Origin: an uncultured bacterium
Lineage (GTDB): Bacteria; Gemmatimonadota; Gemmatimonadetes; Gemmatimonadales; GWC2-71-9
Reading direction: 5' to 3'
DNA: 64,000 nucleotides
Assembly: GCA_965651205.1 (NCBI GenBank)
Contig: CBFGRM010000004.1
Span: 14,241 to 78,240, forward strand
Made by a program: the position numbers and the translations under genes. Positions 8,663 to 50,734 of this stretch are shown piece after piece; within the stretch, counting starts at the first letter, position 1; each line of letters begins with the position of its first letter. The notes beneath the pieces are model-generated. The model did no database searches and was not told the origin of the DNA. It saw only the letters and a list, made by a program, of their open reading frames with translations.

Positions 8663-9588
8663 TGCGGGTGGTCTTCTTCGGAACCCCCGACTTCGCAGTC
8701 CCGACCCTGGAAGCACTGCTCGCAGCCGGTGTCACGGTGGCCGCAGTGGTGACCCAACCTGATCGCCCGCGCACCCGCTCGCATTCGACGCTGCTGCCAT
8801 CGCCGGTAAAGCAGTGCGCCGTTGCAGCCGGTATTCCGGTGCTGCAGCCCGAGCGTCCCCGGGGCGCGGCATTCCTCTCCGAAATCGCGGCACTCGAAGT
8901 CGATCTCGGGGTCGTCGTGGCGTACGGGCATATCCTCCGGCCCGATCTGCTGGCGATTCCGCGACTCGGGATGGTCAACGTGCACGCGTCACTGCTGCCG
9001 CGCTGGCGCGGTGCGGCACCGATCCACTGGGCGATCCTGGCGGGCGACCGCGAGACCGGTGTGTCGGTGATGCGGATGGAGGCGGGACTCGACTCGGGAC
9101 CGGTGTGGCACGCGGTGCGCACCCGGATCGACGACGACACCACCGCCGGCGAACTGTTCGTGCGCCTCGGCGAACTCGGTGGCGAGGCGTTGGTAAGCGC
9201 GCTGCCGATGATCACTTCGGGTGTCGAGCCGACCGAGCAGGATGGCGCACTGGTGACCCTGGCACCCAAGGTGGACCGCGACACGGCTCGGATCATATGG
9301 CAGCAGCAGGCCGGGGCCGTGTCCTGCCGGATCCGCGCGATGGATCCCGCGCCTGGCGCGTGGACGACATTCGACGGCCAGCCGTACAAGCTGTTCGGGC
9401 CAACGGTGCCCGGCGATCCGGCCAGTGCAGCTCCCGGCACCATCGTCGCCACAACCGGGCGACTGGCGATTGCTTGTGGCGACGGCGTGGTCGAGGTGAC
9501 GGAAGTGCAGCCTGCCGGCAAGAAGCGACTGGCAGTTGCTCAATGGCTGCACGGCATCGCGGACCCGCGCGGTGGTCGCTTCGAGTGA
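8662..9588 (+). CDS. fmt: Methionyl-tRNA formyltransferase
   Basis: MRVVFFGTPDFAVPTLEAL and HASLLPRWRGAAPI. Confidence 0.95.
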   Translation: MRVVFFGTPDFAVPTLEALLAAGVTVAAVVTQPDRPRTRSHSTLLPSPVKQCAVAAGIPVLQPERPRGAAFLSEIAALEVDLGVVVAYGHILRPDLLAIPRLGMVNVHASLLPRWRGAAPIHWAILAGDRETGVSVMRMEAGLDSGPVWHAVRTRIDDDTTAGELFVRLGELGGEALVSALPMITSGVEPTEQDGALVTLAPKVDRDTARIIWQQQAGAVSCRIRAMDPAPGAWTTFDGQPYKLFGPTVPGDPASAAPGTIVATTGRLAIACGDGVVEVTEVQPAGKKRLAVAQWLHGIADPRGGRFE

Positions 9589-14758: not shown

Positions 14759-15801
14759 TGCGCGTGCTCGCGATCGAGACCTCGTGCGACGAAACGTCGG
14801 CCGCCGTGGTGTCACGCGACGGTGGCCGCGTCACGCTCGACGGAATGGCGATCCTGTCACAGGACATCCACAAGGTGTTCGGCGGCGTGGTGCCCGAGCT
14901 GGCCTCGCGCGCACATCTGGAAACCATCGGACCGGTTGCAGACGATGCCCTGGCGCAGGCCGGGATCGGGCTGGCCGACCTCGACGGCATCGCCGTCACC
15001 CGCGGCCCCGGGCTGCTCGGCGCCCTGCTGGTGGGTGTCACCTGGGCCAAGACCGTCGCCTGGCGCGAACAGTTGCCGCTGATCGGTGTGCATCACCTCG
15101 AAGGCCACCTGTTCGCACCCGTGATCGAGCATCCCGACGTGGAGCCGCCGTTTACCGCACTGCTGGTGAGCGGCGGCCACACGATGCTGCTCGACGTGCC
15201 GGCGTGGGGCGAGTACCACCTGCTCGGCGCCACTCTCGACGATGCGGCAGGTGAGGCATTCGACAAGGTCGGCACCCTGCTCGGACTGGATTATCCGGCC
15301 GGTGCGGCAATCGAGCGCCTCGCCGCCGAAGGTGACCCGGCGAAATACCGGTTTCCGCGGCCGCTGCTCAAGGGCAGCGCCGCCAAGGATCGCTGGAACT
15401 TCTCGTTCAGCGGCCTCAAGACAGCGGTGCTGCGCGCGGTGCAACTGAGCAACGATCCGACCGCCGAACGCGCTGATCTGGCCCGCGGATTCCAGGACGC
15501 AGTAATCGAGGTGCTGGTGAGCAAGACACTCGACGCCGCCGCCGAACACGGTCGCGAGTTGGTAGTATTGGGGGGCGGAGTCGCCTGCAACCGGACCCTT
15601 GCGGCAGCGGTCCGGTCGGCAGCACCGGCAGGTACCCGAGTCGCGGTCGCTTCGCCCAGGCTCAACACCGACAACGCGGCGATGATCGGGGCTGCCGGAA
15701 GCTGGCGACTGGGGCGCGGTGAACGCGACGACGCCGCGCTGGCCGCCGCCGATTCGCTGCCACTGCCAGGCCTGACCATTCACGGAGATGCCACCGCGTG
15801 A
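14758..15801 (+). CDS. tsaD: tRNA N6-adenosine threonylcarbamoyltransferase
   Basis: MRVLAIETSCDETSAAVV and GVHHLEGH. TGATG junction with the previous gene. Confidence 0.95.
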   Translation: MRVLAIETSCDETSAAVVSRDGGRVTLDGMAILSQDIHKVFGGVVPELASRAHLETIGPVADDALAQAGIGLADLDGIAVTRGPGLLGALLVGVTWAKTVAWREQLPLIGVHHLEGHLFAPVIEHPDVEPPFTALLVSGGHTMLLDVPAWGEYHLLGATLDDAAGEAFDKVGTLLGLDYPAGAAIERLAAEGDPAKYRFPRPLLKGSAAKDRWNFSFSGLKTAVLRAVQLSNDPTAERADLARGFQDAVIEVLVSKTLDAAAEHGRELVVLGGGVACNRTLAAAVRSAAPAGTRVAVASPRLNTDNAAMIGAAGSWRLGRGERDDAALAAADSLPLPGLTIHGDATA

Positions 15802-16649
15802 CCCTAGTCTACACGCTCAGCTTCAACATCGGCACGATCGAGATCACCGGTTTCGGAATCACGATGATGCTGGCGTTCCTGGTCGGCACCTGGCTGGTGG
15901 ATCGTGAGCTCAAGCGACACGGCCTGGCCTCCGACTACGCTGGCGAAATCCTGCTGGGCGCCGTGATCGGCGGCATCGTGGGCGCCAAGCTCTGGTACGC
16001 CGCGCTGCACGGCCCCGAGACGCTGTTCGCGCGGGCCGGCCTGGTCTACTACGGTGGTTTCCTGGGTGGCACCCTGGGCGTCATCCTGGTCGGCTGGCGC
16101 CGCCGGGTCCCGATCCGCTGGACGATGCACCTGGTGGCACCTGCCCTGGCCGCGGGATACGCCATCGGTCGGGTCGGCTGCTACGTCGTGGGAGACGACT
16201 ACGGCGTGCCCAGCACCCTGCCCTGGGCGGTCGCATTTCCCGAGGGCTCACCCGCCTCGTACGCCGGCGTGATGGTCAGTTCATTCGGCATCACCCCGCC
16301 TCCGGGGAGCACCCCCGAGACCCTGCTGGCCGTCCACCCGACCCAGCTCTATGAGGTGGCGGTGATGCTGCTGGTGTTTGCGCTGCTCTGGGCCTGGCGC
16401 CGCAAGCCGCTGGGAACCGGCTGGCTGTTCGGCGCCTACCTTATGCTGGCCGGAACCGAACGGTTCCTGGTCGAGTTCCTGCGGGCCAAGGACGACCGGT
16501 TCCTGGGTGCCTTCACCTACGCCCAGGGCACCTCGGTGGCGATGTTCCTGGCCGGATTGGTACTCTGGCGTATGCTGGCCGACCGGCCCGCTCAGGCCCC
16601 GGGCGAGTGGCTCAAGGCGGGTGGCAAGGCCGCCGACGGGAGCCGTTGA
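15798..16649 (+). CDS. lgt: Prolipoprotein diacylglyceryl transferase
   Basis: GTG 15798 overlaps the tsaD stop. Polytopic membrane protein with IGRVGCYVVGDDYG and HPTQLYE motifs. Confidence 0.9.
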   Translation: MTLVYTLSFNIGTIEITGFGITMMLAFLVGTWLVDRELKRHGLASDYAGEILLGAVIGGIVGAKLWYAALHGPETLFARAGLVYYGGFLGGTLGVILVGWRRRVPIRWTMHLVAPALAAGYAIGRVGCYVVGDDYGVPSTLPWAVAFPEGSPASYAGVMVSSFGITPPPGSTPETLLAVHPTQLYEVAVMLLVFALLWAWRRKPLGTGWLFGAYLMLAGTERFLVEFLRAKDDRFLGAFTYAQGTSVAMFLAGLVLWRMLADRPAQAPGEWLKAGGKAADGSR

Positions 16650-16669: not shown

Positions 16670-16698
16670 TTGACACACCTTTGATCAGGCCGTATGTT
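16670..16698 (+). promoter_or_regulatory. Near-consensus sigma-70-type promoter (TTGACA - 17 nt - TATGTT)
   Basis: TTGACA at 16670-16675, a 17-nt spacer, and TATGTT at 16693-16698. It sits 21 nt after the lgt stop, with no + strand CDS downstream. Confidence 0.6.
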
Positions 16699-16704
16699 CA
16701 GTCC

Positions 16705-16853
16705 GTGATGGTCGTCGGAGGGTCGGCGGCCGGAAAAAGTCCCAGGACGAAGAAGGGTGGAGCGAACACATCTGTTCGTCTCCGTATACTCAGGGGGCGT
16801 TCTGGGACCTCTCGACGAAACGGCCCGCCAGCGATGGCGGGCCGTTTCATTTG
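16705..16853 (+). ncRNA. Candidate orphan structured small RNA (about 150 nt), family not recognised
   Basis: Bounded by the promoter above and an intrinsic terminator. Nested helices: 16712-16722/16808-16818, 16739-16746/16801-16808 and 16746-16751/16775-16780. There is no plausible ORF, since the only open frame runs through the terminator. Confidence 0.45.
16818..16853. terminator. Bidirectional intrinsic terminator between lgt/sRNA (+) and the FTR1 gene (-)
   Basis: A 10-12 bp GC-rich stem ACGGCCCGCC / GGCGGGCCGT with a 6-nt loop. It is followed by TTTCATTT on the + strand and TTTCGTCG on the - strand. The convergent FTR1 stop is at 16883. Confidence 0.7.
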
Positions 16854-16882
16854 CCGCAGCTACAGCCCACCGCCTAGAGGCG

Positions 16883-18790
<1,908 letters not shown>

Positions 18791-18869
18791 TCTCTGCGTG
18801 GGTATCCCGGCAATCTATGGCAACACAGTCGGGATTCACAACTGCCTGTCGGGAACCGCTGACACGCAC

Positions 18870-19247
18870 TCAGCCTTCGAGCACCGCCACTGCGGCCGCG
18901 ATGTCGCGTGAGTGAGAAATCGAGAGATGGATCGTCACGCCCGGATGTGGCGCCAGCAGTTGCGCTGCCCGGCCGATCAGTTCGATCTCGGGGCGCCCGT
19001 CGGGCAGCTTGCGCACCGACACCTCGCGCCAGCCGATCGGGCGCGCGCCCGGCAGCACTTGCAGTGCCTTGTACACCGCTTCCTTGGCGGCGAGTCGTGC
19101 GGCCAGGGCCGGCGCGGGATCGAACAGTGACTCGACGTAGTGTCGTTCCTCGTCGGTCAAGGTGCGGTCGAGCAGTCGGCCGCCCAGTCGCCCGAGCATC
19201 TCGCGCACGCGATCGACCTCGACCACGTCGAGCCCGATGTTCACCAC
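18870..19247 (-). CDS. acpS: Holo-[acyl-carrier-protein] synthase
   Basis: VVNIGLDVVEVDRV...EAVYKAL...ISHSRDIAAAVAVLEG. The start is GTG 19247 or 19244; GTGGTGA overlaps the upstream stop at 19243-19241. Confidence 0.9.
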   Translation of the reverse strand: MVNIGLDVVEVDRVREMLGRLGGRLLDRTLTDEERHYVESLFDPAPALAARLAAKEAVYKALQVLPGARPIGWREVSVRKLPDGRPEIELIGRAAQLLAPHPGVTIHLSISHSRDIAAAVAVLEG

Positions 19248-19858
19248 GGCCACGGCAGGCTCCAGAACCAGTCGCTGACAGGGGTGAACCAGCCGGGTGC
19301 CGGCACCAGTCCGCCGAGCAGCGCGGCGATCACGACCGCCAGGGACAGCAACACTGCGGCAATGATCACGAACGGCCGCCAGGGGCGACGCCAGTTTTCG
19401 ATGTCGCGCGCGACTCCGGTCCAGTGCATCAGCTCGGCGTCGGCGAGCCGCACCGCTGCACCCCACGCAGCTTCCAGCTCAGCGCCGCGCATCCGGGTCA
19501 GTGCGTCGTCGCGCTCCGGCCCTGCCATCCGCTCCAGCGCTGCGCCCTCTGCGAGCAACCGGTTGAGCAGCGAATCCGCAGCATCAGCATCGGGACGCGC
19601 CTCAGCCAGTCGGCCTGCGGGATACCTCGACCGCGCGGCAGCCCGGTCGATCCGCGCCTCGGCCTCGGCGATCACGTGGTCGCGAAGCGCTCGGGCGGCC
19701 TGCTCCCACGCGGCCAACCAGGCATCACCGTCGAGTCGCTCGCGGCTGTTGAGCGCCACGATCTGGTCAACCAGTGCGAGCCGGGTCGGGTCGTGAGGGC
19801 GGCCGCGCGGCGGTGCCGCCAACCGCCCCAGCGCGGGTGCCACCGGGTTGGTGTTCAC
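19241..19858 (-). CDS. Hypothetical protein with a C-terminal TM helix (205 aa)
   Basis: GTG 19858 overlaps the HAD stop (GTGA). Ala/Arg/Glu-rich helical region, then PFVIIAAVLLSLAVVIAALLGGL. No motif recognised. Confidence 0.55.
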   Translation of the reverse strand: MNTNPVAPALGRLAAPPRGRPHDPTRLALVDQIVALNSRERLDGDAWLAAWEQAARALRDHVIAEAEARIDRAAARSRYPAGRLAEARPDADAADSLLNRLLAEGAALERMAGPERDDALTRMRGAELEAAWGAAVRLADAELMHWTGVARDIENWRRPWRPFVIIAAVLLSLAVVIAALLGGLVPAPGWFTPVSDWFWSLPWPW

Positions 19859-20568
19859 GCGGCGGCCAGTGACAGGATTGCGTTCACGGCGTCTTCCGTG
19901 GCACTCAGGTCGTCAAACGCTGCGTGCGCACCTGCTGCCTGCAGTTCGGCAACGCTGTACGATCCAGTGGCCACCGCCACCGCGCGCACGCCGAGTGCCG
20001 CACCACAGGTCACATCCGCAGGGGTGTCGCCGATGATCACGATCTCTTCGCCCACCGGGACGCGACCGAACAGTGGCCTGGCCCGTTCCACCGCGATCGG
20101 TGGCAGCATCGGCCGGTCGGCGTGATCTGACCCGTAGGCGCCGATCCGGAAGCGGCCGGGATCGATACCGGCTGCTCGCAACTTGAGTCCTGCTCCCTTG
20201 ACCACGTTGCCCGTGAGCAGACCGATGCACACTTCCGGGCGCGCTTCGAGTGCGTCGAGCAGCTCGACGATTCCCGGCAACGGCCTCACCAGGCTGCCTC
20301 GGCTGGTCAGTTCATCCTCGAGATGCGCCAGGTAGCGATCCAGCAGCTCGTTGATCACCTCGGTGGTGGCGCGATCGCCGTGACCGGCGGCGTGATACAA
20401 CTCGCGCACGATCTGCGGATCGGTCTTGCCGTCGAATCGGACCGTGTCGAAGAACGAATCGGGATCGGCGAACGCATCGTCGAACGCCAGCCGGATCGCC
20501 GACCGACCCGCGGAGGCACTGGAGAGCAGGGTGCCGTCGATGTCGAAGAGAACCAGGGTGCTGAGCAT
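19855..20568 (-). CDS. HAD-superfamily hydrolase (phosphoglycolate phosphatase-like)
   Basis: ATG 20568 (TGATG junction). Intact motif I LVLFDIDGTLL, motif II GLLTGN, motif IV VIIGDTPADV. Confidence 0.85.
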   Translation of the reverse strand: MLSTLVLFDIDGTLLSSASAGRSAIRLAFDDAFADPDSFFDTVRFDGKTDPQIVRELYHAAGHGDRATTEVINELLDRYLAHLEDELTSRGSLVRPLPGIVELLDALEARPEVCIGLLTGNVVKGAGLKLRAAGIDPGRFRIGAYGSDHADRPMLPPIAVERARPLFGRVPVGEEIVIIGDTPADVTCGAALGVRAVAVATGSYSVAELQAAGAHAAFDDLSATEDAVNAILSLAAA

Positions 20569-21347
20569 CAGGTCAGGCGCCTCACCATTACCAATCGAGT
20601 CCGGAGGGACGCCGCCCGGCTCCCGGGTGTCCACGACTCCCGCGTCACCTGTCCGGTTGCCAGGGTGCTGTGCACGATGGTGTCGGCGTCGGCTGCAATG
20701 GCGACCTCGACAATCTGGTCCGAGTCTTCACCGCGGAAGAACAGCAGGTCGCCGCTGGCCACCTGATCGAGCGGCACGGCGGTGCCGAGTGTCGCCTGGT
20801 CGCCCACCATTCGCGGCATCGGAATGCCGCGCGCGAGGAAGGTGGTCTGCACCAGGCCGGTGTCGTCGATGCCACCATCGGTCACCCCGCCCCACAGGTA
20901 CGGGGTGCCGGCAAACTCGCGCCAGGCCCACTCCGCCGGCGACAACAGGTGTGCCTCGCGGATCACCTCGCCGATGCCCTGAATCCTTCCGGTGCGAATC
21001 CTGGCGGGCCTGCCATCCGGCAGGCGAACCCGTTCGTTGCCGTCTATCAGCAACCGCGCCCGGTGCGGCGCCCTCAGGCGCGCACCCGAGACCTCCAGCT
21101 CGGCACCGGTGGACCAGCCCGCGCCTACCAGCCAGCTATCGGCCTCGCCGGTGCTGGTGAGTTGCAGGTAGCCGCGATGCACCCAGCCGCTGCAGTCGTC
21201 GAGCAGGGTGTGCACGTGCAGCAGGTCGGCGTCGGTGCCGATTACCCGTGCGGCCTCTCCGAGTACCAGTTGGGTGACTTGTTCGGCAGCCAGCGAGGCG
21301 CTGGCAAGCACCGGGGCGACACGCACATTGGTGATCACGGCACTCAC
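20568..21347 (-). CDS. NlpC/P60-family cell-wall peptidase with an N-terminal SH3-like region
   Basis: GTG 21347 (GTGA overlap). AGTPYLWGGVTDGGIDDTGLV in place of the usual catalytic-Cys segment, with GDLLFF and a distal His region. The track ORF 20568..21482 N-terminal extension was rejected. Confidence 0.75.
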   Translation of the reverse strand: MSAVITNVRVAPVLASASLAAEQVTQLVLGEAARVIGTDADLLHVHTLLDDCSGWVHRGYLQLTSTGEADSWLVGAGWSTGAELEVSGARLRAPHRARLLIDGNERVRLPDGRPARIRTGRIQGIGEVIREAHLLSPAEWAWREFAGTPYLWGGVTDGGIDDTGLVQTTFLARGIPMPRMVGDQATLGTAVPLDQVASGDLLFFRGEDSDQIVEVAIAADADTIVHSTLATGQVTRESWTPGSRAASLRTRLVMVRRLT

Positions 21348-21535
21348 GCGCCCGAGTCTCCTCCCGAGCACGTCCGGCAGCGGGTGATGCCGCGGATGGT
21401 GCACATCAGGCACACGAATGTGCCACAGCCGTCGCAGGGATAGCCCTCCGACGCCCGCTCCTCGCGACCGCACGAGCGGCACAGCATTGCATCGCGTTCT
21501 GCGAGCGGCGGGCGCGGCGTGGTTCCCATACTCAC
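21344..21535 (-). CDS. Cys-rich microprotein (63 aa, four CxxC pairs)
   Basis: GTG 21535 overlaps the regulator stop (GTGA), and its own stop overlaps the NlpC/P60 start. CxxC at residues 19/22, 34/37, 42/45 and 53/56. Confidence 0.6.
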   Translation of the reverse strand: MSMGTTPRPPLAERDAMLCRSCGREERASEGYPCDGCGTFVCLMCTIRGITRCRTCSGGDSGA

Positions 21536-22926
21536 TGCTGGATGGCGTAGCGCTTGATCTTGGCGATCAGCGTCGCGCGGGAAATACCGAGCTCCTCGGC
21601 GCTGCGGGTGCGGTTGCCGGAGTGGTGCTTGAGAGTCCGCTCGATGTGCATCCGTTCCACCTCATCCATCGTGAGCGGCGTGTGCCGCCGGTCGAAGGGT
21701 CCGGGCCGGGCGCGAAACTCTCCCGGAAGGTGCTCGATACCGATGGCCGGGTGCCCTCGTGCCAGCAGCAGTGATCGTTCGAGCACGTGTCGCACCTCGC
21801 GCAGGTTACCCGGCCACGGATGCGACGTGAGGCGGTCGAGCGCCTCGTCGCTGAGCTCCATCGGTGAACCGGGCGAGGCACCGGCGAGCTGGTTGAGCAA
21901 CCGCTGGATCGCGGCACCGACATCGGCACGGCTCAGGTCGCGAAGCGGTGGCACCGTCAGCGACATCGCCTTGAGCCGGAAGTACAGCTCCCGCTCGAAG
22001 CGGCCCTCGGCCTGTTCGATCGCGGGATCGTGCGAGGTGGTAGCCACGATCCGCACGTCCACCGGAATCTCGCGAGTGCCCCCGCTGCGACGGAAGGCGC
22101 GCTGCTCCACCATTGCCGCGAGCTGGACCTGGACTCCGATCGGCGCGGCGGTGATCTCGTGCAGCGCAAGGGTGCCCCGATCGGCGATTTCGACCAGACC
22201 GGCACGCGACTGCTCGGCAGGCTGGCTGAGCGGTGCGTCGATTCCGAACAGCGTTGTTTCCAGCCCGGCCGGCTCGGCGGATGCCGCCACGATCTCGATG
22301 AACGGCTCGTCGGCGCGATTGGAGAGGTCGTGCAGCATCCGCGCGATCCGGCGCTTGCCGGTGCCGGGTTCGCCGCGTACCAGGATCGCGGGCTGGTTGC
22401 TGCGGGCCAGTACGGTGAGCTTCTGCCGGAACTCGCGCATCGGCGGCGAATCGCCCAGGGTGGCGACACCACTTGCGTCACTGCCGCGACCAATCAGGGT
22501 GCGATTGACCCGCCTGAGCCGCACCTTTTCGGCGGCGCGATCTGCAGCCGCTCCGAGGTGATCGAGATCGACCGGCTTGGTCAGGAAGTTCTCCGCCCCG
22601 TTGCGCATCGCCTGCACCGCCAGGGACACCTGACCGTCGCCGGTCAGCACGATCACCGCAGTGTCGCTGCCGCGGAGCCGTTCGAGCACCTCCAGGCCGT
22701 CGATCCCGGGCAGGTGCAGGTCGACCAGCACCAGGTCCGGCAACGTTCGCCCGAAGGTGGTGAGGCCGGCCTCACCGGTGAGTTCGCGGTGCACGTCCCA
22801 GCCACGCTGCGCGAAGAACTCGCCCAGCGAGCGCAACAGGGCGATGTCATCGTCGATCAGCAGGATGGAATCGGCCACAGGCGGAGTCCTGACCGCAATG
22901 AGTGAGGGGTGGCGCGGCTCGGGCAA
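21532..22926 (-). CDS. NtrC-family response regulator (REC + AAA+ + Fis-type HTH) with a degenerate sigma-54 interaction module
   Basis: REC domain ILLIDDD...LVLVDLHLPG...TKP. Walker A GEPGTGKRRIA. C-terminal HTH AEELGISRATLIAKIKRY. The GAFTGA position reads IDAPLSQPAEQS, and the Walker B position reads GTLALHEI. Confidence 0.9.
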   Translation of the reverse strand: MPEPRHPSLIAVRTPPVADSILLIDDDIALLRSLGEFFAQRGWDVHRELTGEAGLTTFGRTLPDLVLVDLHLPGIDGLEVLERLRGSDTAVIVLTGDGQVSLAVQAMRNGAENFLTKPVDLDHLGAAADRAAEKVRLRRVNRTLIGRGSDASGVATLGDSPPMREFRQKLTVLARSNQPAILVRGEPGTGKRRIARMLHDLSNRADEPFIEIVAASAEPAGLETTLFGIDAPLSQPAEQSRAGLVEIADRGTLALHEITAAPIGVQVQLAAMVEQRAFRRSGGTREIPVDVRIVATTSHDPAIEQAEGRFERELYFRLKAMSLTVPPLRDLSRADVGAAIQRLLNQLAGASPGSPMELSDEALDRLTSHPWPGNLREVRHVLERSLLLARGHPAIGIEHLPGEFRARPGPFDRRHTPLTMDEVERMHIERTLKHHSGNRTRSAEELGISRATLIAKIKRYAIQQ

Positions 22927-22956
22927 GGCAATGGCGAGCCGGCCACCGGTAATGTA

Positions 22957-23883
22957 TCACCGCCTCGGGGCGGGTGGGCGCGGCAGCATCACGCTGATCG
23001 CGCGGGGAACCACCTCCACCGAGAACGGCGTCTCCCCACCGGGCTCGCCGTCGAACTGCACCGGGTGAACCTCGCCGTCGGCGACCTCCACCGTGAACTT
23101 GCTGCCGCGGACGTATCCCACCAGCGCGTCCTCGCCGAAAGTCCCGGTGCGCTCGGTCACCAGGTCCCACATCGCCCGCATTGTTTCAGCCACGGTGTCG
23201 CCGCGGACCACCATCAGGTCGAGCTCGCCGTCGAACGGCGAAATGCCGGCGCCCAGCCGCATCATTCGCGGGAACACCTCGCCACAGTTCGCGATCAGTA
23301 CCATTGCCGCTTCCGCCTCGTGCAGCTTGCCGTCGACGGTGATCCTGAACGGGATGTTGCGGATCTCCGGCAACACCTTCAAGGTGGTTGCCACATAGGC
23401 CATCATCCCCCAGCGGTGCTTGGAGGCGGAGTCGGTCTCTACCATCACCCGGGCATCGATGCCGGCCCCGGCAGCCACCGCGAAATAGTGATCGCCATCC
23501 TTGCGGTTGAGGCGGCCGAGGTCGATCGCGCGCGGCAGCCCGTCCACCATCATCTGGGTGGCGCGGATCGGATTGATCGGCAGTCGCAGGTTTCCCGCCA
23601 GCAGGTTGCCGGTACCGCCCGGGATGAGTCCCAGTGCAGTCGAAGTCCCCACCAGCGAGGCCGCGGCCTGCATCGTGGTGCCGTCGCCACCGAACACCGC
23701 CACCACGTCGACCTCGTCCTCGACCGCCTGGGCTGCCATCCGGCGTGCGTCGCCGGGTCCGCCGGTCGCCTTGATCTCGAGATCCCAGTTGGCGTTGCGG
23801 ATCGTGTTCTCGATGCCGACCAGCGTCGAGGGGTCGGTGCGCGCGGCGTTCGGGTTGGCAATCAACAGTGCACGAGTTCGCAA
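22957..23883 (-). CDS. Diacylglycerol/lipid kinase family protein (YegS/BmrU-like)
   Basis: ALLIANPNAA..., VVAVFGGDGT, LGLIPGGTGN. TTG 23883 lies 1 nt after the tamB stop. The alternative ATG 23952 would overlap tamB by 68 nt. Confidence 0.8.
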   Translation of the reverse strand: MRTRALLIANPNAARTDPSTLVGIENTIRNANWDLEIKATGGPGDARRMAAQAVEDEVDVVAVFGGDGTTMQAAASLVGTSTALGLIPGGTGNLLAGNLRLPINPIRATQMMVDGLPRAIDLGRLNRKDGDHYFAVAAGAGIDARVMVETDSASKHRWGMMAYVATTLKVLPEIRNIPFRITVDGKLHEAEAAMVLIANCGEVFPRMMRLGAGISPFDGELDLMVVRGDTVAETMRAMWDLVTERTGTFGEDALVGYVRGSKFTVEVADGEVHPVQFDGEPGGETPFSVEVVPRAISVMLPRPPAPRR

Positions 23884-23884
23884 C

Positions 23885-26800
23885 TCAGTACTCCCGTTCC
23901 CAGAGCAGATCGCCACCGAGCTGGTAGCGTCGCGGAATATTGTTGAAGCCATCTCCCAGCCTGGCACCAATGCACGACTGCACCGGCTCGGCCGACGCCT
24001 GCACCCGCCAGTCCCGCGCGAAACGATACTCGATCGTAGCGCCGAAGTTGCGGGCCGAAAACGATTCCGACTGGCCGCCACCGAGACAGAAGCCCGCGTT
24101 GACCGTCACGAACCAGCGACTCCCCAACTGGACACCGGCGGCCAGCGACGTGAACGATCCCACGTCGGTGCCGCGCGACGGAATGCCCGGCCGGATCTCG
24201 AACAAGTCGAGTCCCAGGTTGGCCTCCTGAACCAGTTGCCGCTCGACCTCGCCCGAGATGGTCGCCAGCGCCATCTGGATCGCCAGTTGACTGCCTGCCT
24301 GCTGGGCGGAGTTGCCGGCCAACTGGAACTCGGGTCTCCCGAACATCAGGTAGGACAGGATGTCCCGCTCCGGAATGTCGCGACCCGGCGAAGATAGTTC
24401 CACCTGCGGCACCTGGATGGTCCCGGTGATCCTCGCCACGATCGGGATCTCGTCGCCATCGTAGGCCCGCACCAGGTAGCTGGCCTGGATGTCGAGTTCG
24501 GCATTCAGGTCGGCCGTGCCGAGATAGGTGACCGTTCCGCGGTCGATGGTGAACTTGCGGTTGATCAGGCCACGGACGTTCAGGGTGTATTCGCCCCGCG
24601 GCGTGTCCAGCTCGCCTGCAACGATGTAGGCCCTGCCGGTCTTGCTCACCTGCACCGTGCCCTCGAGCTGGATCTCCGCCTCGGCGGAGCGCAGCCACAC
24701 GTCGCTGCCCACCACGACAGTGAGGTTCTCGATCCGGAGCGAGTCGAGGAAGCGGTTCTGGAACGCGGCTCCCAGTTGCTGGCGACGCAGTTCCTCGACA
24801 TCAACCAGGTCCCGGTAGGCCGGATCCTCCAGATCGATGACGTTCTTGTTGATGATATCCGAGAAGTAGACATCGCTCGACGTGATGGTGACCGAGTTGC
24901 CGCGCAACACCGGTCGGCTGAGTGGGCCGGTGAGCGTTACCGTGCCGGTCGGCCTGGCCACCAGAAATCCCGGCACGTTGATCGCCAGGAATCGCCGCGA
25001 CGACAGGTTCAGGTTGAGCACGGTGCGGCTGAGATCCTCGAAGCGCACCGAGCCGTCGATTGCCAGTTCACCTTCGTCGCTGGCAAGCGTCAGTCTCTCC
25101 ACGACAAGCGAGTCACCCGCAAAAGTTGCCCGTCCCTGAATCGGCCCGTAGCGCACGCCAAGGTTGGGGATCGTGGTGCGACCGAGATAGACGGCGGCAT
25201 CGCCCGCCAGCTCGGGTTCATCCCAGGTCCCGCCGATCGTGAGGTCGAGTGACATCGCTCCCGTGGTGCTGCGGATCGACGTGGTGAATGCCTCGAGCAG
25301 CGCCAGTTCGGCGGAGTCGGCGGTGGCGCGAATCTCGATCGGCCCCGGCAGGCGACGATTCTCCCGCGCGGCCAGCGCCAGGTCGAACGGCACGTTCGCA
25401 TCCACCTCGAGCACGGGTTCGCCCAGCCGCCAGAATGTCACGTTGGCGCGTGCGGTGTTGTCGGCATAGTCGTATGCGGCACGCAACAGGGGCGGAGTGG
25501 CGGCCCCGAAGCGCGGCCCGGTGACCATTGCGTTGCCCCGCAGCAACGGGGCGTTGCGGGTGCCGCCCAGCCGGAAGTCCAGTTGTGCCAAGCCACCCAC
25601 TTCGGAGGTGTCGCGGCCCAGGACAGCGTAGATGTCGGCCAGGTCCAGCCCGATTATCGATGCCTCCAGCTCACCGGTGCCGACACCCGGCAGGGCACCG
25701 GCCAGGGTCATCAACCCGGAACCGTCGTCGGTGCGGAGAACCAGGGTGTCGGTGAGCGTGATGACGCGGTCCCCCAGCGTGAGCACGGCGGGATCTTCGA
25801 GTGTCCACTGTTGTCTCGGCAATCCGAGTCGCAGCGAATCGATCCCCAGTCGGTCACCGTCCGGGCCGGCGATGCGCCAGCCGCCGATCGCAAACCGTGA
25901 TTCGCGCAGGCGCCCCGAGGCCGCTGCATTGAGCGAATCGGCCGAACCGCCGAGCACCACGCGCAAGTCGGTGCCGACCTGGCGACCCTTGGCCAGCGAG
26001 TCGATTCGCGCGTCGAGGTGAATGCCCTGAGTGGAGAGCGAATCGGCGGAGATCTCCGCGGCGAGCTGACCGATCGACCAATCGTCAACCCGCACATCCC
26101 CTGCTTCCACCAACCCTGCGATGGCCGGCTCCTCGACCGACCCGAAGGCGATCAGTTGAGCGCTGGCGGTGCCGCCCAGCGGCAGGTAGCTGGCGGAATC
26201 CGGTTCGAGTCCGAAGGTGGCGCGCACCAGCGAATCGAACGGCTCCAGCGAGAATCCCGCGGCCTCGATCCGCATCATCCCCGAATCGGCCGCCGTCCAC
26301 CCCAACGAACCCTGCGCCAGCAACCCGCCGCTCGACCAGTTGACCGAGAGCGAGTCGGTCGAGAGCACGGCGCCGTCGGAATTGATCGCTCCCTGCACGC
26401 CGCTCAGCGTAAGGCCGCCGATCCGCGACTGTCCCAACTCGAGTCGGGCCGTTCCGATCGGTGCGGAGCCCGAATCGATCACGCCATCGAGCGTCATCAA
26501 CCCGTTGATGGCGGTGTTGCCGCCGCGACCAAGCACTGCCTCCACATCCAGCCGTCGCACGTCGAGCAGCAGGTTGTCGAACCGATAGCGCGGGGCAGTG
26601 GCGCCGATCACGCCTTGCGCAACGACGTCGCCGATGTCACCCGTGAGATCGGCATCGATCTCCAGCGAGTCGAGCGGCCCGTTGGCGATCACCCTTCCCG
26701 ACACACCACCGCGCGGAGTCAGCGCGGGGTAACCGGTGCGCAAGCCGTCGAACGAGAGCCGGTCGAAGCGCGCATCCATCCCGATCGCCAGAGGTTCGCC

Positions 26801-28297
26801 CCGGGTGTCCAGCCTCACCGTGCCGATCAGTCGCGACAGCGATCCCTCAGGGGCCTGATGCTCCGCGGTGCCCTGGAAGGTGACATCCTGCCACGGTCCA
26901 TCGAGCCGTCCCACCAACCGCATCCGTCCCGGCAGCGCCACCGCGGGGGCCTGGACAGTCACCGTGGCGAGCGCCACCGACGACTCGTTCAGCACGAAGT
27001 TGTCGAAGGTCGCACCGGCAGCGCCGCCGAACGACACCGAACCTTCGAAGTCGAACGAGGAAGTGGCCGGTCTCGCCGGGAGGTGATCCCGAAAGGTCAT
27101 CGTCCCGGCAAGTCGGATGTCGCTCTGGTAACCATCTGCCTGCAGCCGGCCATCCAGGCTGCCCCGGAACGGCAGTGTGTCGAGGTAGGGCCGCACCACT
27201 TCGAGGCTGACGGCCTCCAGCACCAGGTCGAGGTCGCGCACTCCGACGCCGCGATCATCATCGAGTATCGCCACCAGCCGGCCCGCCGCGCGCGAGCCGG
27301 CGTCGCCGAGATGGAGATCCTCCAGCACGAATTCGGTGTGCCGATTCGTGGTCGACAGCGCCACCACAGAACCGCGTCCGCCCCAGTCGGGAAAGTCGGG
27401 CTGGATCCAGCGCAGGTCGCGGAGCGCCACCGTGTCCGCTTCGAGAGCGAAGTCGTAGCGGATCGTGTCGTCCGGCCAGCGCACCGCACCGCTGCCGTGC
27501 ACCACGGTGCCAGGCAGCGCGGCCTCGCTGAACTCGAAGCGCAACGAGTCGGCCTTGGTGATCACCTGACCCTCCAGCGCCACGATGCTGAGCGCGGGAT
27601 CGGTGAGATCCGCGTTCAACTCCGCGATTTCCACCAGGATGGGATCGTCTTCCGGGGTGGAGATCCGGATCAGCGGCAACCGGGCGTCGACACCGGTCGC
27701 GCGATACACCCTCACCGGTCCGTCGCTGCCCTCGGTGATCTCGGGTTGGGCCGGCTCGGCGCCGCGCGCGCTGATCGGCTGCCTCGGCGGTCCGGGCGTG
27801 GTCGGCACGTCCACTCGCAGCACCGCACCGTTGAGCACCACGTCGCGCAGCTCGACCCGCGGCGGCGGGCCATCGCCACCGCCCTGGCCGGCGCGGAAAA
27901 TCTCCTGGTAATTCCAGCGACCACTGCGCAGTCGCTGGATGTGCAGGTCGGGCTGCTGCAAGTCGAGTTCGCGAATCACGATCCGGCCGGCCAGCAGTTC
28001 CGGCAGCAGGTACCGCGCCTCCAGTCGCGGTATCCGCGCCAGCCGCACGCCGGTGGAATCGCGGATCACCACGTCCTCGAGAACCAGGTGACGGATGATG
28101 CTGCCCCGGATGCCGCCGATCGACACATCGCCGGCCACGTTGCTGCTGATCACGTCGGTGAGGATCCGCGCCGTGAGTGCGCGACCAGGCGGAGTGTACA
28201 TCAGTGCCAGCGCAGTGCCGATCACCGCCGCCACGATCACCAGCGGAGGGCCGACCGACCACGCGATCACCCGGCGCAGAACCCGGCGCCACGACAT
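23885..28297 (-). CDS. tamB: Translocation and assembly module protein TamB (AsmA-like, 1470 aa)
   Basis: N-terminal signal-anchor, a long beta-rich repetitive body, and a DUF490-type C-terminus. It pairs with the upstream Omp85 gene through a TGATG junction at 28299-28295. Confidence 0.85.
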   Translation of the reverse strand: MSWRRVLRRVIAWSVGPPLVIVAAVIGTALALMYTPPGRALTARILTDVISSNVAGDVSIGGIRGSIIRHLVLEDVVIRDSTGVRLARIPRLEARYLLPELLAGRIVIRELDLQQPDLHIQRLRSGRWNYQEIFRAGQGGGDGPPPRVELRDVVLNGAVLRVDVPTTPGPPRQPISARGAEPAQPEITEGSDGPVRVYRATGVDARLPLIRISTPEDDPILVEIAELNADLTDPALSIVALEGQVITKADSLRFEFSEAALPGTVVHGSGAVRWPDDTIRYDFALEADTVALRDLRWIQPDFPDWGGRGSVVALSTTNRHTEFVLEDLHLGDAGSRAAGRLVAILDDDRGVGVRDLDLVLEAVSLEVVRPYLDTLPFRGSLDGRLQADGYQSDIRLAGTMTFRDHLPARPATSSFDFEGSVSFGGAAGATFDNFVLNESSVALATVTVQAPAVALPGRMRLVGRLDGPWQDVTFQGTAEHQAPEGSLSRLIGTVRLDTRGEPLAIGMDARFDRLSFDGLRTGYPALTPRGGVSGRVIANGPLDSLEIDADLTGDIGDVVAQGVIGATAPRYRFDNLLLDVRRLDVEAVLGRGGNTAINGLMTLDGVIDSGSAPIGTARLELGQSRIGGLTLSGVQGAINSDGAVLSTDSLSVNWSSGGLLAQGSLGWTAADSGMMRIEAAGFSLEPFDSLVRATFGLEPDSASYLPLGGTASAQLIAFGSVEEPAIAGLVEAGDVRVDDWSIGQLAAEISADSLSTQGIHLDARIDSLAKGRQVGTDLRVVLGGSADSLNAAASGRLRESRFAIGGWRIAGPDGDRLGIDSLRLGLPRQQWTLEDPAVLTLGDRVITLTDTLVLRTDDGSGLMTLAGALPGVGTGELEASIIGLDLADIYAVLGRDTSEVGGLAQLDFRLGGTRNAPLLRGNAMVTGPRFGAATPPLLRAAYDYADNTARANVTFWRLGEPVLEVDANVPFDLALAARENRRLPGPIEIRATADSAELALLEAFTTSIRSTTGAMSLDLTIGGTWDEPELAGDAAVYLGRTTIPNLGVRYGPIQGRATFAGDSLVVERLTLASDEGELAIDGSVRFEDLSRTVLNLNLSSRRFLAINVPGFLVARPTGTVTLTGPLSRPVLRGNSVTITSSDVYFSDIINKNVIDLEDPAYRDLVDVEELRRQQLGAAFQNRFLDSLRIENLTVVVGSDVWLRSAEAEIQLEGTVQVSKTGRAYIVAGELDTPRGEYTLNVRGLINRKFTIDRGTVTYLGTADLNAELDIQASYLVRAYDGDEIPIVARITGTIQVPQVELSSPGRDIPERDILSYLMFGRPEFQLAGNSAQQAGSQLAIQMALATISGEVERQLVQEANLGLDLFEIRPGIPSRGTDVGSFTSLAAGVQLGSRWFVTVNAGFCLGGGQSESFSARNFGATIEYRFARDWRVQASAEPVQSCIGARLGDGFNNIPRRYQLGGDLLWEREY

Positions 28298-30393
28298 CAG
28301 AACGCGTGCCCGATCGAGAAGTGGAAGGTGAAGTCGCGGTTGCGATCGCGACGATCCGACGCGCGCACCTGGACCAGGTCACCGTTCTCGGTGCTGGTGT
28401 AGACCGCGCCGCGCTCGAGCTGGTAGGGATTGTATCCGACGTCGAATCGCACCGGGCCGAGCGGTGAAGCGATCCGCAATCCCGCACCCGGCGTGACCCG
28501 GATGCCGGCGGAACCGGTCCGCGACCACAGCGCCCCGGCGTCGACGAAGGTCACCAGGCGGAACCGGTCCGACAGGAACGGTGCCGGGAAGCGCAGTTCG
28601 AGATTGGCAATCGCCACCCGGTCGCCACCGGTCGCCGCGACCCTGAGTGCGTTCGGATTGTAGGTGGTGTCCGCACCGGTCACGGTGATCGAGTCGCGCG
28701 GGATCACGTAGACCACCGGGCCCAGTTCGTTGCGGTCGTAGCCGCGCAGGTCGTTGGCGCCGCCGGCATAGAAGCGCTGTTCGGGCGGCACGAACGAGGT
28801 GCGCTCCCCGGCGAGGTCGATCTGGGGCGAAAAGATCACTCCTCCGCGCAGGTGTCCGGCCACCACCACGTTGCGGGTGAGCGGCCGATAGATCGAGGCA
28901 TCGGCCACCAGGCGGGTGAACTGCTGCAGCTCGGAGGATCCCAGCAGTGCGCTCGACACCGTCGCCTCTGCCGACAGCATCGTGCCTCGCGTCGGGTCGA
29001 GCAGGTTGTTCACCCGTTGCCTGGCCGCGCCCAGCGTCAGCATCGTGAGCACCCTGCGCTCGCGCAACTGTGCCACGTCGTCGCTGACGCAGGCGTTGAA
29101 GAACTGGCAGAACGACACCTGGTTGGCGCGGGTCTGTCCATAGGATATCCGGTAGCCGAGCGTCACCGGGATGCGACTCACCGTTTCGCGGGTGATCGCC
29201 ACCTCGGCGCCGACTTCCTCGCGCATATAAACCGCGTACTCGCTGCGGCGCTCGGAGAAGATCGTCAGCGACAGGGTGTTGTCGGGCGACAGGAATGCGT
29301 GCCGCCTCAGCGTCACGTCGATGCCGAAGTTGGCCAGCTCCGATCCCACGGTGTCGGCCTCGAGCGAGGAACAGATCGACCTTTCGGCCCCGAAGCCGAA
29401 CGGCGAACCGACACCGATCTTCGACAATCGACCCGAGATGTCCACCACCCTGCCGTTGCCCAGGAAGTTGCGGGCCGTCCACCCGGCGCCCACCCGGAAG
29501 CAGTCGTTGGTGGCGTAGCCGACCGAACCGCGCGCCCGGTGACTGCGCCCCTCGGTGACATCCACCCTGATCGGCACCACCGTGTCGCCAGGAGCGTACG
29601 CCGTGGTGTCGATCCCCACGGTCGCGAAGCGGAAGAGTTCGCTGGCATACAGCGAGCGCTGCGACCGGTACAATGCGTCGAGTCGATACGGCCTTCCCTC
29701 GCGCACGCTGACCAGCGAGGCGATGAAGGCCGAGTCGACATCCTCCTGGCCACGCACCTCGATCGGACCGAACACCGCGGCGGTGCCCGGGCTGGCGAGG
29801 AAGGTGACGGTGCCTCTTCGGGTGGCCGAGTCTGCCCGCGCCGCCCGATCGACGGTGGCCGATGGGTAACCGGCATTGCGGAGCCGCTCCGCCAGTGTGT
29901 CGGCTGTCTCCTCGATCCGGAAGCGGTTGAACGGATCCCCCTCGGCGAGTGGCAGGTCCCGCGTCAGCGTCGGGGCATCGGCCACCCCTTCCAGTCCCTC
30001 CACCGCAATCGCGCTTATCCGGGTCGGCTCGCCTTCATCGATGTGAAAGGTGATCTCCACCGTCTCGTCGCTGCGCTCGACGGTGGTGTCCACCTGGACT
30101 TCGAAGTAGCCGCTCAGGCGGTAGAGCAGCCGGATCCGTTCGACATCGGCGCGAAAGGCCCGTTCACTGAAGGTGCGCGTTTCGCCGGCGCCCAGCCATC
30201 GAATCAGCACGCTGCGCGCCAGCCACGACGAGTTGGTGGTGGCGATCGCGGCTTGCAGGGCGAGATCCTCGATGGCGCGGTTGCCGTCGAACTTGAGTCC
30301 ACGCACGATCAGCGGCCCGTCCTGGGCGGCGAGCACGGGGGCGAATGTCGCCAGGATCAAGCTGAGACCAACCGATCGGATCAACCGCATCAT
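28297..30393 (-). CDS. tamA: Omp85/BamA-family outer-membrane assembly protein (TamA-like by pairing with tamB)
   Basis: Signal peptide MMRLIRSVGLSLILATFAPVLAAQ, POTRA-like repeats (IVRGLKFDGNRAI..., ISAIAVEGLEG...), and a C-terminal beta-barrel ending ...FTFHFSIGHAF. Confidence 0.85.
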   Translation of the reverse strand: MMRLIRSVGLSLILATFAPVLAAQDGPLIVRGLKFDGNRAIEDLALQAAIATTNSSWLARSVLIRWLGAGETRTFSERAFRADVERIRLLYRLSGYFEVQVDTTVERSDETVEITFHIDEGEPTRISAIAVEGLEGVADAPTLTRDLPLAEGDPFNRFRIEETADTLAERLRNAGYPSATVDRAARADSATRRGTVTFLASPGTAAVFGPIEVRGQEDVDSAFIASLVSVREGRPYRLDALYRSQRSLYASELFRFATVGIDTTAYAPGDTVVPIRVDVTEGRSHRARGSVGYATNDCFRVGAGWTARNFLGNGRVVDISGRLSKIGVGSPFGFGAERSICSSLEADTVGSELANFGIDVTLRRHAFLSPDNTLSLTIFSERRSEYAVYMREEVGAEVAITRETVSRIPVTLGYRISYGQTRANQVSFCQFFNACVSDDVAQLRERRVLTMLTLGAARQRVNNLLDPTRGTMLSAEATVSSALLGSSELQQFTRLVADASIYRPLTRNVVVAGHLRGGVIFSPQIDLAGERTSFVPPEQRFYAGGANDLRGYDRNELGPVVYVIPRDSITVTGADTTYNPNALRVAATGGDRVAIANLELRFPAPFLSDRFRLVTFVDAGALWSRTGSAGIRVTPGAGLRIASPLGPVRFDVGYNPYQLERGAVYTSTENGDLVQVRASDRRDRNRDFTFHFSIGHAF

Positions 30394-49578: not shown

Positions 49579-50688
49579 TCAGCGACCTCGGCGCTGAGCC
49601 ACCACGTGGGCGCGATGCGCCTCGAACAGCAGCGTGCCGAAGCAGGCCAGGATGGCGGCCCCACCCACCAGCAGCGGCCTGGCACCGGCCATCACTGCCG
49701 CAATTGCCGCCGCCAGCATTGCCGGAACCAGGGCACCCTTGGGCCAGCGCTGTTCGCTGCGACCGCGCCACTCTGCCACCGCATAGCCCAACGCGGTGAA
49801 GCCCGCGGCGATGGCCAGCCATTCCAGCACTACCTCTCGACCGGATGGCGCCGGGAAGGCCAGTGCCACCGGATCACCGATTCGGACCGCGAACCAGGGT
49901 GCCATCCCCAGCAGCACCGCCAGCACGCCACCTGGCTCCACCCGTCGATCGGCTCGTCGGCGTCCCCACCAGCTATCGCCGGCCAGGCAGGCGAGCCCTG
50001 CCACAGCGACGGCGGCCAGGCCGCGAAGCGGTTCCGACGACAGGCCGGGCAGGGCTGCTGTGAAGGCCCAGGCGCCGAGGATCGGCCAGAGCACTCCCGG
50101 CCGACCCCGGGTGCGTTCCGCGTTGCTTCGGCCCGCCGCGGCGACCGCCGCCCCACCGGCGGCGGCCAAAGCCAGCGTGGGCAACCAGCGGGTGGTGGTG
50201 AGCCCTTCGATCCAGATCAGCGGTACCAGCAGCCAGGCCAGCGCCACCAGGGGAAGGTCGAGGAACAGTCTGCCGGTGATGCCGTCGGGCCCGGCCAGTC
50301 GGCGGCGGACCAGTGCGGAACCGGAGGCACCCACCCAGGCCCCCAGACCGTTGGCTGCCAGGTCACTGAGGGTGGTCCAGCGGCCCGGCAGGAAGAGCTG
50401 GGTGATCTCGATGCCCAGTGACAGGCCCAGCCCGAGGATCGCGGTGCGCCACACGCCAAACCGGCGTTCGAGCAGGAACCCGAGTGGCACGAACAGCGCC
50501 AGGTTGAGCAGCACGTCGGTGCGACCATCGGCACCGCCGGGCACCAGCAGGATCCGGTCGAACGAGGCAGGCTCCAGCCTGAACGGCGACAGCACGATCA
50601 CCGCCACCACCCCGGCGAGGTAGCCGAGGAGGAGGCGATCGAGGCGCCGGGTGGCGCCGGGAACCGGGTCAGGCATTGACTCGCTCAT
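49579..50688 (-). CDS. VanZ-like family membrane protein with an extended polytopic C-terminal region
   Basis: VLLNLALFVPLGFLLE...GIEITQLFLPGRWTTLSDLAANGLGAWVG (VanZ core), followed by about 6 more TM segments. Confidence 0.75.
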   Translation of the reverse strand: MSESMPDPVPGATRRLDRLLLGYLAGVVAVIVLSPFRLEPASFDRILLVPGGADGRTDVLLNLALFVPLGFLLERRFGVWRTAILGLGLSLGIEITQLFLPGRWTTLSDLAANGLGAWVGASGSALVRRRLAGPDGITGRLFLDLPLVALAWLLVPLIWIEGLTTTRWLPTLALAAAGGAAVAAAGRSNAERTRGRPGVLWPILGAWAFTAALPGLSSEPLRGLAAVAVAGLACLAGDSWWGRRRADRRVEPGGVLAVLLGMAPWFAVRIGDPVALAFPAPSGREVVLEWLAIAAGFTALGYAVAEWRGRSEQRWPKGALVPAMLAAAIAAVMAGARPLLVGGAAILACFGTLLFEAHRAHVVAQRRGR

Positions 50689-50734
50689 AGCATTATGATA
50701 TCATCTCGATGTCACCCAAATACTGGAGAATGCG

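Follow-up and report, generated by a model that had tools for sequence, protein, structure and literature searches.

A 64-kilobase (kb) stretch of a contig from an uncultured, metagenome-assembled genome of the Gemmatimonadales, hereafter the window, very probably contains a real, independent, structured RNA gene at positions 16705-16856 of the plus strand, one that sequence comparison places in a new family. The gene lies within the 233 nucleotides (nt) between the stop codon of lgt (16649) and that of the convergent FTR1 gene (16883). Our explanation of the whole, held with slightly better than even confidence, is that this is a stand-alone RNA of about 150 nt from an undescribed family, and that it would be a trans-acting regulator with an invariant internal loop as the dock for a partner. 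The initial annotation of this DNA had described the same gap, which the stop coordinates confirm, and had read in it an orphan, promoter-to-terminator structured RNA; conservation, covariation, promoter, and terminator now support that reading. The RNA is a new family within a known kind, the bacterial stand-alone small RNAs: it has its own putative promoter motif, its own terminator hairpin, no convincing same-strand open reading frame (ORF) downstream in the loci inspected, and a non-coding pattern of variation.

The evidence for a conserved RNA comes from the 80 closest lgt loci among species-representative genomes, whose Lgt proteins are 54-69% identical to that of the window; nearly all are labeled as Gemmatimonadales, Gemmatimonadota, or Gemmatimonadaceae assemblies, and one as Acidimicrobiia. 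Searches with the gap as query (blastn, nhmmer) recover a homologue just downstream of lgt that is as much as 95% identical in nucleotide sequence along about 120 nt, and when this is set against the identity of Lgt, the RNA stretch is therefore far better conserved than the flanking protein. The aligned homologues read, from 5' to 3', as a promoter, a variable hairpin, a near-invariant core of about 83 nt, a CU-rich linker, and a covarying terminator stem. With a covariance model of the core, 47 of the 80 loci give 55 matches between them at E < 1e-8, every one on the strand of lgt; the window gives exactly one, on the plus strand. In these 55 sequences, standard pairs account for 96.8% of cells, and both partners have changed at 17 of the 25 pairs; these values are not reached in any of 500 shuffles, and structures slid by 1-3 columns are 29-46% paired. 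An independent set of 109 metagenome sequences gives 95.7% pairing, 14 pairs with double changes, and again no shuffle among 500 that matches it.

The changes are distributed as expected of helices. P2 switches wholesale between GUCCCAGGA/UUCUGGGAC and GUGGYAGGU/AUCURCCAC, and this divides the family into two subgroups: G1, with P2 = GUCCCAGGA, to which the window belongs, and the larger G2, with P2 = GUGGYAGGU. P3b and P3c covary (GC to AU), with double changes at 9-10 pairs; P3b alternates between GGAG/CUCC and GAAG/CUUC, and P3c varies at most pairs. P3a never breaks and is invariant except for G/A at one position. Two conserved G-U pairs (in 44 and 42 of 54 sequences) identify the transcribed strand as plus, because they would be A-C mismatches on the other strand; the restriction of covariance-model matches to the plus strand and the orientation of the promoter back the same assignment. 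Core length ranges from 49 to 55 nt across the family, through indels of 1-6 nt. Such variation breaks the reading frame, and the changes are compensatory, so coding sequence is ruled out.

The region folds at -79.3 kcal/mol (z = -5.1 versus shuffles), and the minimum-free-energy fold consists of three separate hairpins, at 16710-16731, at 16739-16808 with the internal loop, and at 16817-16848 (Table 1). The sequence of P1 is not conserved, differing in composition and length from genome to genome, and most homologues have a local hairpin at its place (median z = -1.35; 63% below -1). At the place of the terminator, 93% of homologues have a very stable hairpin (median z = -5.4) with a stem of 13-17 base pairs (bp); that of the window is followed by AUUUGCC. 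It probably also ends lgt transcripts and, on the opposite strand, FTR1 transcripts. Copies of the terminator hairpin that are 86-97% identical (GAAACGGCCCGCC...GGCGGGCCGTTTC) lie 2.5 kb away in two of the homologous loci, which are cited here by L numbers (L001:7519-7552 and L019:7448-7499); this suggests a reused terminator or a repeat element.

Table 1. Coordinates of the RNA gene, its predicted parts, and other features of the window and of homologous loci
Feature	Position	Strand	Basis or remark
-35 hexamer TTGACA	16670..16675	+	TTGAC(A/G) kept at this position in 27/31 subgroup-G1 homologues
-10 hexamer TATGTT (TAnnnT)	16693..16698	+	TAnnnT 16-18 nt after -35 in G1 homologues
Small RNA transcript, ~150 nt, predicted	16705..16856	+	5' end predicted from promoter spacing, 3' end from terminator tail
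P1, variable 5' hairpin, 16710-16718 pairs with 16723-16731	16710..16731	+	Minimum-free-energy fold
A-rich linker CGGAAAAA, family consensus RAAA directly 5' of P2	16732..16738	+	Three positions 89-92% A
P2, 5' strand GUCCCAGGACG	16739..16749	+	11 bp; double compensatory changes at 7-8; 100% of cells paired
Internal loop, 5' side AAGAA, invariant	16750..16754	+	55 covariance-model matches found without a pattern
P3 arm: P3a GGGU/ACUC, P3b GGAG/CUCC, P3c CGAACA/UGUUCG	16755..16791	+	Apical loop CAUC; bulged U 16779; 3' asymmetric loop GUAU
Internal loop, 3' side AGGGGG, invariant	16792..16797	+	Alignments
P2, 3' strand CGUUCUGGGAC	16798..16808	+	Covariation
Pyrimidine-rich single-stranded linker CUCUCGAC, family consensus CUCYY	16809..16816	+	
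Terminator hairpin, 16817-16830 pairs with 16835-16848, 14 bp, loop GCGA, tail AUUUGCCG	16817..16856	+	Fold, covarying stem
lgt	15798-16649	+	PF01790
FTR1 iron permease with N-terminal cytochrome c domain, 635 aa	16883-18790	-	PF03239, PF13442
NtrC-type response regulator (receiver, sigma54-interaction, HTH_8 domains)	21532-22926	-	4.7 kb from RNA
Sigma54-type promoters of G2, examples	L084:3471-3485; L127:8930-8944; most of L031-L200		
Extra minus-strand genes between RNA and FTR1, examples	L084:3638-4120; L086:8457-8954; L116:3605-4416	-	

The initial annotation had proposed an alignment of the regions downstream of lgt in relatives, which does reveal high conservation and abundant compensatory changes, and had looked to such changes as a test of three nested helices, of which only one, corresponding to the outer part of P2, is borne out. 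That helix (16739-16746/16801-16808) was correct, and represents the outer 8 bp of the 11-bp P2. The outermost proposal (16712-16722/16808-16818) is paired in 42% of cells, the level of the slid controls, and its 5' segment forms a local hairpin instead; the innermost (GACGAA/TTCGTC, 16746-16751/16775-16780) fails at three of its six pairs, each disrupted in 17-26 of 54 sequences, and is also incompatible with the covarying P2 and P3c. A GC-rich terminator about 150 nt downstream of the promoter had likewise been proposed; the hairpin is there, at 16817-16848, and its stem covaries, but it comprises 14 bp rather than 10-12 and has no canonical U run.

The strongest constraint in the RNA falls on a purine-rich internal loop of 5 x 6 nt, with 5'-AAGAA-3' facing 5'-AGGGGG-3', which lies between two freely varying helices. 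Among sequences collected without a pattern, the bases that never change are, on the 5' strand, those of a C-G and a G-C pair, AAGAA, and GRGU, and on the 3' strand ACUC, AGGGGG, and C-G; the internal loop and its closing pairs thus amount to 23 constrained bases. One paralogue has a single extra A in the AAGAA side. Several familiar motifs were compared with the loop by eye and set aside: a kink-turn needs G-A/A-G next to a 3-nt bulge and does not fit; the sarcin-ricin or loop E motif requires AGUA, which is absent; the ATP-aptamer loop GGAAGAAACUG has only GAAGAA in common; and RNase P CR-I (GAGGAAAGUCC) is resembled in subgroup G1 only, P2 being different in G2. Pairing of the G run with the CU-rich linker into a pseudoknot was also rejected, given that the linker is not conserved and sits at the far end of the 11-bp P2. 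No complement to the invariant loop strands was found within the window. In 1 Mb of related loci, one complement to the 5' strand of the loop (CGAAGAAGGG) recurs, and only one: it falls within FTR1 coding sequence, over the codons for PLKPFFG. This was dismissed as a target: it follows codon choice, is exact in 26 of 132 cases, is mismatched at two positions in the window, and is missing from most loci; because synonymous sites there vary freely, we regard it as a coding coincidence.

The putative promoters of the two subgroups belong to different sigma classes. The TTGACA and TATGTT hexamers of the window are separated by a 17-nt spacer (16670-16698, plus strand). The 64-kb window contains five sigma70 hexamer matches, no more than shuffled sequences do, so the hexamers alone are not evidence; the evidence is their conservation at a fixed distance, with a sigma70-like promoter in 27 of the 31 G1 sequences and its -35 box 72-93 nt upstream of CGAAG. 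The G1 alignment has a conserved -35 of TTGACAG and a -10 of the form TAnnnT. The initial annotation had rated this the best sigma70-like promoter in the window; TTGACA-17-TATGTT is indeed present, but it is not uniquely best, as it ties at 10/12 with a site at 50676-50704. That second site, TTGACT-17-TATCAT, is on the plus strand and has the TG of an extended -10; the ORF at 50735-51604 lies 30 nt downstream.

Subgroup G2, by contrast, has no sigma70-like promoter, and 100 of its 121 copies instead have TGGCAC-N5-TTGC, the -24/-12 sigma54 consensus, beginning 62-67 nt upstream of CGAAG (matches of at least 9/10 positions, with GG at -24, GC at -12, and 10-nt spacing). The same motif occurs in 1 of 31 G1 copies, and 130-nt segments drawn at random from the same set of loci contain it in at most 1.3% of cases. 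Judged from these motifs, the predicted promoter class is swapped between lineages, sigma54 versus sigma70. Recurrent inverted repeats are found upstream of the G2 promoter, including CCCAAGTCAT-N-ATGACTTGGG, GTCAAA-N-TTTGAC, TAAGY-N17-RCTTA, and GTC-N9-GAC (e.g., L127:8886-8914), and these are probably sites for an enhancer-binding protein. The G2 copies that have no sigma54 motif are mostly the second member of a tandem pair of modules; neither a promoter nor a terminator interrupts such a pair, which would form a single transcript. In L127, for example, the two modules span 8981-9177 and share a single terminator at about 9181-9206. Further two-module loci are L039, L064, L065, L076, L080, L085, L104, L108, L118, L126, L148, and L167. 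Second modules keep the invariant loop and are without the CU-rich linker. Two other loci, L017 and L034, carry two complete tandem genes, each with its own promoter and terminator.

No described RNA family examined accounts for the RNA. A covariance scan of the whole window, 13 homologous loci, and one two-module homologue against Rfam 15 (4227 models) yielded nothing at the gathering threshold in the window or the 13 loci. At permissive E-values, matches score 12.7-19.8 bits in the window and at most 20.7 in the two-module homologue, against gathering thresholds of 35-218; they belong to unrelated families and overlap only the terminator hairpin or the lgt stop region. The initial annotation, which had suggested such a scan, had itself matched the RNA to no known family, and that judgment holds. 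A full-text literature search on small RNAs of Gemmatimonadetes, Gemmatimonadota, or Gemmatimonas found no description of this RNA. The GlmY/GlmZ models (RF00126, RF00128) do not match. 6S RNA was rejected, as the fold is three separate hairpins rather than one long irregular helix with a central bubble, and RF00013 gave no match. Read directly, the 55-sequence alignment has no conserved A(N)GGA in hairpin loops of the kind that marks CsrB/RsmZ, and the GGAs of the window fall in stems or at variable positions. Nor is there the combination of a same-strand downstream gene and an expression platform that distinguishes a riboswitch or cis-acting leader: in the nine loci whose gap was inspected, no convincing same-strand gene follows the RNA and the genes there are on the minus strand. 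The downstream genes are convergent, as the initial annotation argued in denying that this is a 5' leader or riboswitch. A riboswitch with an antiterminator was likewise discarded, with no downstream same-strand gene in the inspected loci, very stable terminators, and no competing pairing seen by eye.

Under the explanation that we favor, the RNA would act in trans as a regulator, and the invariant internal loop would be its docking site, most likely for an RNA-binding protein that the RNA titrates or recruits. The mode could resemble that of GlmY/GlmZ with RapZ, or of CsrB/RsmZ/CrcZ with their proteins, and the CU-rich linker beside the terminator may in addition pair with Shine-Dalgarno-like sequences. 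The level of the RNA would be set by transcription, through a sigma54 activator in most lineages and sigma70 in that of the window. A docking site is favored because the loop is invariant on both strands while the stems vary, and because the module has been duplicated with the loop kept and the linker lost. For the protein-docking mechanism specifically, our confidence falls a little short of even. More tentative still is the fuller proposition that the AAGAA/AGGGGG module may be a new RNA receptor for a dedicated protein or small ligand, and the RNA the first riboregulator of the Gemmatimonadota, unrelated to GlmY/GlmZ or CsrB, sigma54-switched in most lineages and sigma70-rewired here.

The CU-rich linker admits a different account, which we consider unlikely: the RNA could be a base-pairing small RNA in which the linker, ACCUCYY, is an anti-Shine-Dalgarno-like seed that blocks ribosome binding, the hairpin being only a scaffold or a chaperone handle. 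In first or only copies, the five positions of CUCYY are 93-97% pyrimidine, with a CUC start in most sequences, and the linker lies directly 5' of the terminator, where the seeds of many small RNAs sit. GGAG or GAGG precedes the start codon in 10 of 45 window genes, against a background of 7.5%, and tandem paralogues with their own promoter and terminator, such as those of L017 and L034, are found for many base-pairing small RNAs. But the linker is not conserved beyond CUC, the 23 invariant bases are located instead in the internal loop and closing pairs, second modules dispense with the linker and retain the loop, and no target was found, the FTR1 complement only tracking codons for Pro-Phe-Phe-Gly/Ala. 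Docking and base-pairing would in any case be compatible, by analogy with GlmZ, which does both. The restriction of invariant bases to a loop between covarying helices is also the usual signature of a ligand-binding RNA, and the tandem modules recall tandem aptamers; the purine-rich loop might accordingly be a binding site for a small molecule or metal ion, which the RNA would sense or sequester, or a catalytic core, making the RNA a trans-acting or orphan aptamer or ribozyme. One could speculate that its many guanines coordinate soft metal ions. We judge this improbable, given that there is no expression platform and no same-strand gene in the loci inspected, that the terminator is a very stable one of 13-17 bp, that no Rfam riboswitch or ribozyme model matches, and that a regulated sigma54 promoter would suit a regulator better than a sensor.

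It is also conceivable that there is no independent gene here, and that the element is a conserved, structured 3' untranslated region and shared bidirectional terminator of the tsaD-lgt operon, with a cis effect on the stability of the mRNA or on termination between the convergent genes. In the window, the lgt stop and the -35 box are only about 20 nt apart, with no terminator between, and the hairpin at 16817-16848, at 34 nt from the FTR1 stop, could end transcription on both strands. This reading is nevertheless very improbable in light of the conserved promoters of two sigma classes at fixed distances upstream, of the roughly 200 nt, with promoter and repeats, that lie between lgt and the RNA in G2, and of the many relatives in which lgt directly abuts FTR1; a near-invariant 23-base loop would, moreover, be unexpected for a stability element. 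As is usual for DNA of such high G+C content, the gap accommodates ORFs of at least 50 codons, and one of them, a 50-codon minus-strand ORF at 16698-16850, illustrates the idea of a small protein gene. We give this idea, together with that of a 5' leader or riboswitch of a downstream gene, next to no credence: the core has indels of 1-6 nt and pairwise compensatory substitutions, the 5' part varies, the inspected loci have no same-strand gene downstream, and public gene calls for the same contig leave the gap empty.

Several observations weigh against a stand-alone, trans-acting, protein-docking RNA. The terminator has a U-poor tail with no canonical U run and was missed by the consensus scan. 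Given the short distance between the lgt stop and the -35 box, part of the RNA could come from lgt read-through and processing. The RNA has one or two modules, far fewer than classical sponge RNAs, and base-pairing small RNAs just as typically have a pyrimidine-rich linker beside the terminator. No obvious RNA chaperone was recognized among the 33 window ORFs scanned against Pfam (coordinates 380-47615). Both transcript ends are predicted from sequence features. Finally, the RNA is missing at 32 of the 80 lgt loci, where lgt abuts FTR1 or other genes; because it is absent from approximately 40% of related lgt loci, we consider it an accessory element rather than a core housekeeping RNA.

The closest known systems fall into four sets: GlmY/GlmZ, small RNAs that titrate proteins, base-pairing small RNAs under sigma54 control, and orphan structured RNAs of single lineages identified through comparative genomics. 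In the Enterobacteriaceae, the structured part of GlmY/GlmZ is read by RapZ and a single-stranded stretch of GlmZ base-pairs, while among related species the promoters of these RNAs are in some cases of the sigma54 class, with an activator bound to inverted repeats upstream, and in others of the sigma70 class. Like GlmY/GlmZ, the Gemmatimonadales RNA is a stand-alone species in the range of about 150-200 nt with stem-loops, a single-stranded stretch, and a terminator, has paralogous copies, and shows sigma54/sigma70 switching; unlike them, it belongs to another phylum, has no sequence or model similarity to them, and has a purine-rich internal loop as its conserved element. We know of no link to glmS for it. 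With CsrB, RsmY, RsmZ, and CrcZ, the last of which is transcribed in Pseudomonas from a sigma54 promoter with an NtrC-type activator, it shares repeated modules whose number varies between relatives, and would share trans action and protein binding. Their modules, however, are short hairpin loops with GGA or stretches rich in A, repeated from 4 to 20 or more times, rather than an internal loop with 23 constrained bases in 1-2 copies. Qrr of Vibrio and Pxr of Myxococcus are similar in their sigma54 promoter (here in G2), lineage restriction, tandem duplication in some genomes, and stem-loops followed by a terminator, but have a conserved linear seed and usually lie next to the activator gene, whereas the nearest sigma54 activator here is 5-8 kb away. 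Chlorobi-1, Acido-1, and Bacteroidales-1 are similar as phylum- or order-restricted RNAs with covariation, an apparent promoter and terminator of their own, and no known function; unlike them, the Gemmatimonadales RNA is absent from Rfam 15.

The RNA family is present in many but not all Gemmatimonadales. A context-free pattern, CGAAGAAGRGT-N22-45-ACTCAGGGGGCG, matches at least 120 metagenome contigs, many from Joint Genome Institute (JGI) environmental projects (names prefixed Ga), and has zero matches in viral contigs. In almost all of the metagenome contigs listed, the RNA is preceded by lgt in the same orientation, followed by the FTR1-cytochrome c gene in convergent orientation, or, where the contig is long enough, flanked by both. 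The syntenic block consists of AhpC, tsaD, lgt, and the RNA, followed on the opposite strand by FTR1, phosphopantetheinyl transferase, HAD, NlpC/P60, sigma54 activator, and lipid kinase genes. The family comprises more than 170 distinct sequences, supported by covariation and with a candidate recognition site of 23 constrained bases, and is already fit for submission to Rfam. Gemmatimonadota are among the most abundant soil phyla, and our literature search for any regulatory RNA in the phylum found nothing. The RNA may therefore provide a concrete bait for RNA-binding proteins of this phylum, and the predicted sigma54/sigma70 rewiring, together with the one- and two-module forms, constitutes a natural experiment.

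Several loci depart from the common arrangement. L073 (4957-5056) contains what looks like a decayed copy, in which a sigma54-like motif, TGGCGCATAGACTGC, is followed by AAAGTGGTAGAGCGAAGAAG running straight into the terminator hairpin; from its sequence, the RNA appears to have been lost there by internal deletion. In the RNA-less loci L022 (4835-5030) and L024 (4930-5010), the lgt-FTR1 gap has runs of GAGGTAA-like heptamers, with the reverse complement TTACCTC across a hairpin. Contigs L082, L088, L093, L094, L096, and L120 stop inside the RNA, 5-14 nt before CGAAGAAG, which probably reflects an assembly break at sequence shared by co-occurring strains.

Around the gene itself, the window is as the initial annotation described it, with no plus-strand gene for 13 kb: by Pfam, every gene from 16883 to 30393 is on the minus strand, in a series of FTR1, phosphopantetheinyl transferase, HAD hydrolase, NlpC/P60, sigma54 activator, lipid kinase, TamB, and Omp85 protein genes, and the first plus-strand gene past the gap begins at 30587. 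The NtrC-type activator gene of this series (Table 1) lies 5.4-7.8 kb from the RNA in all long homologous loci. It is also present where the RNA is absent, and because it is syntenic everywhere, RNA-less loci included, we treat it as a lead only. The fusion of FTR1 to cytochrome c is kept across the order. The distance from RNA to FTR1 is larger in most genomes than in the window, and many relatives have extra minus-strand genes between the two, by eye RraA-like, DinB-like, or small monooxygenase-like, which the window is without.

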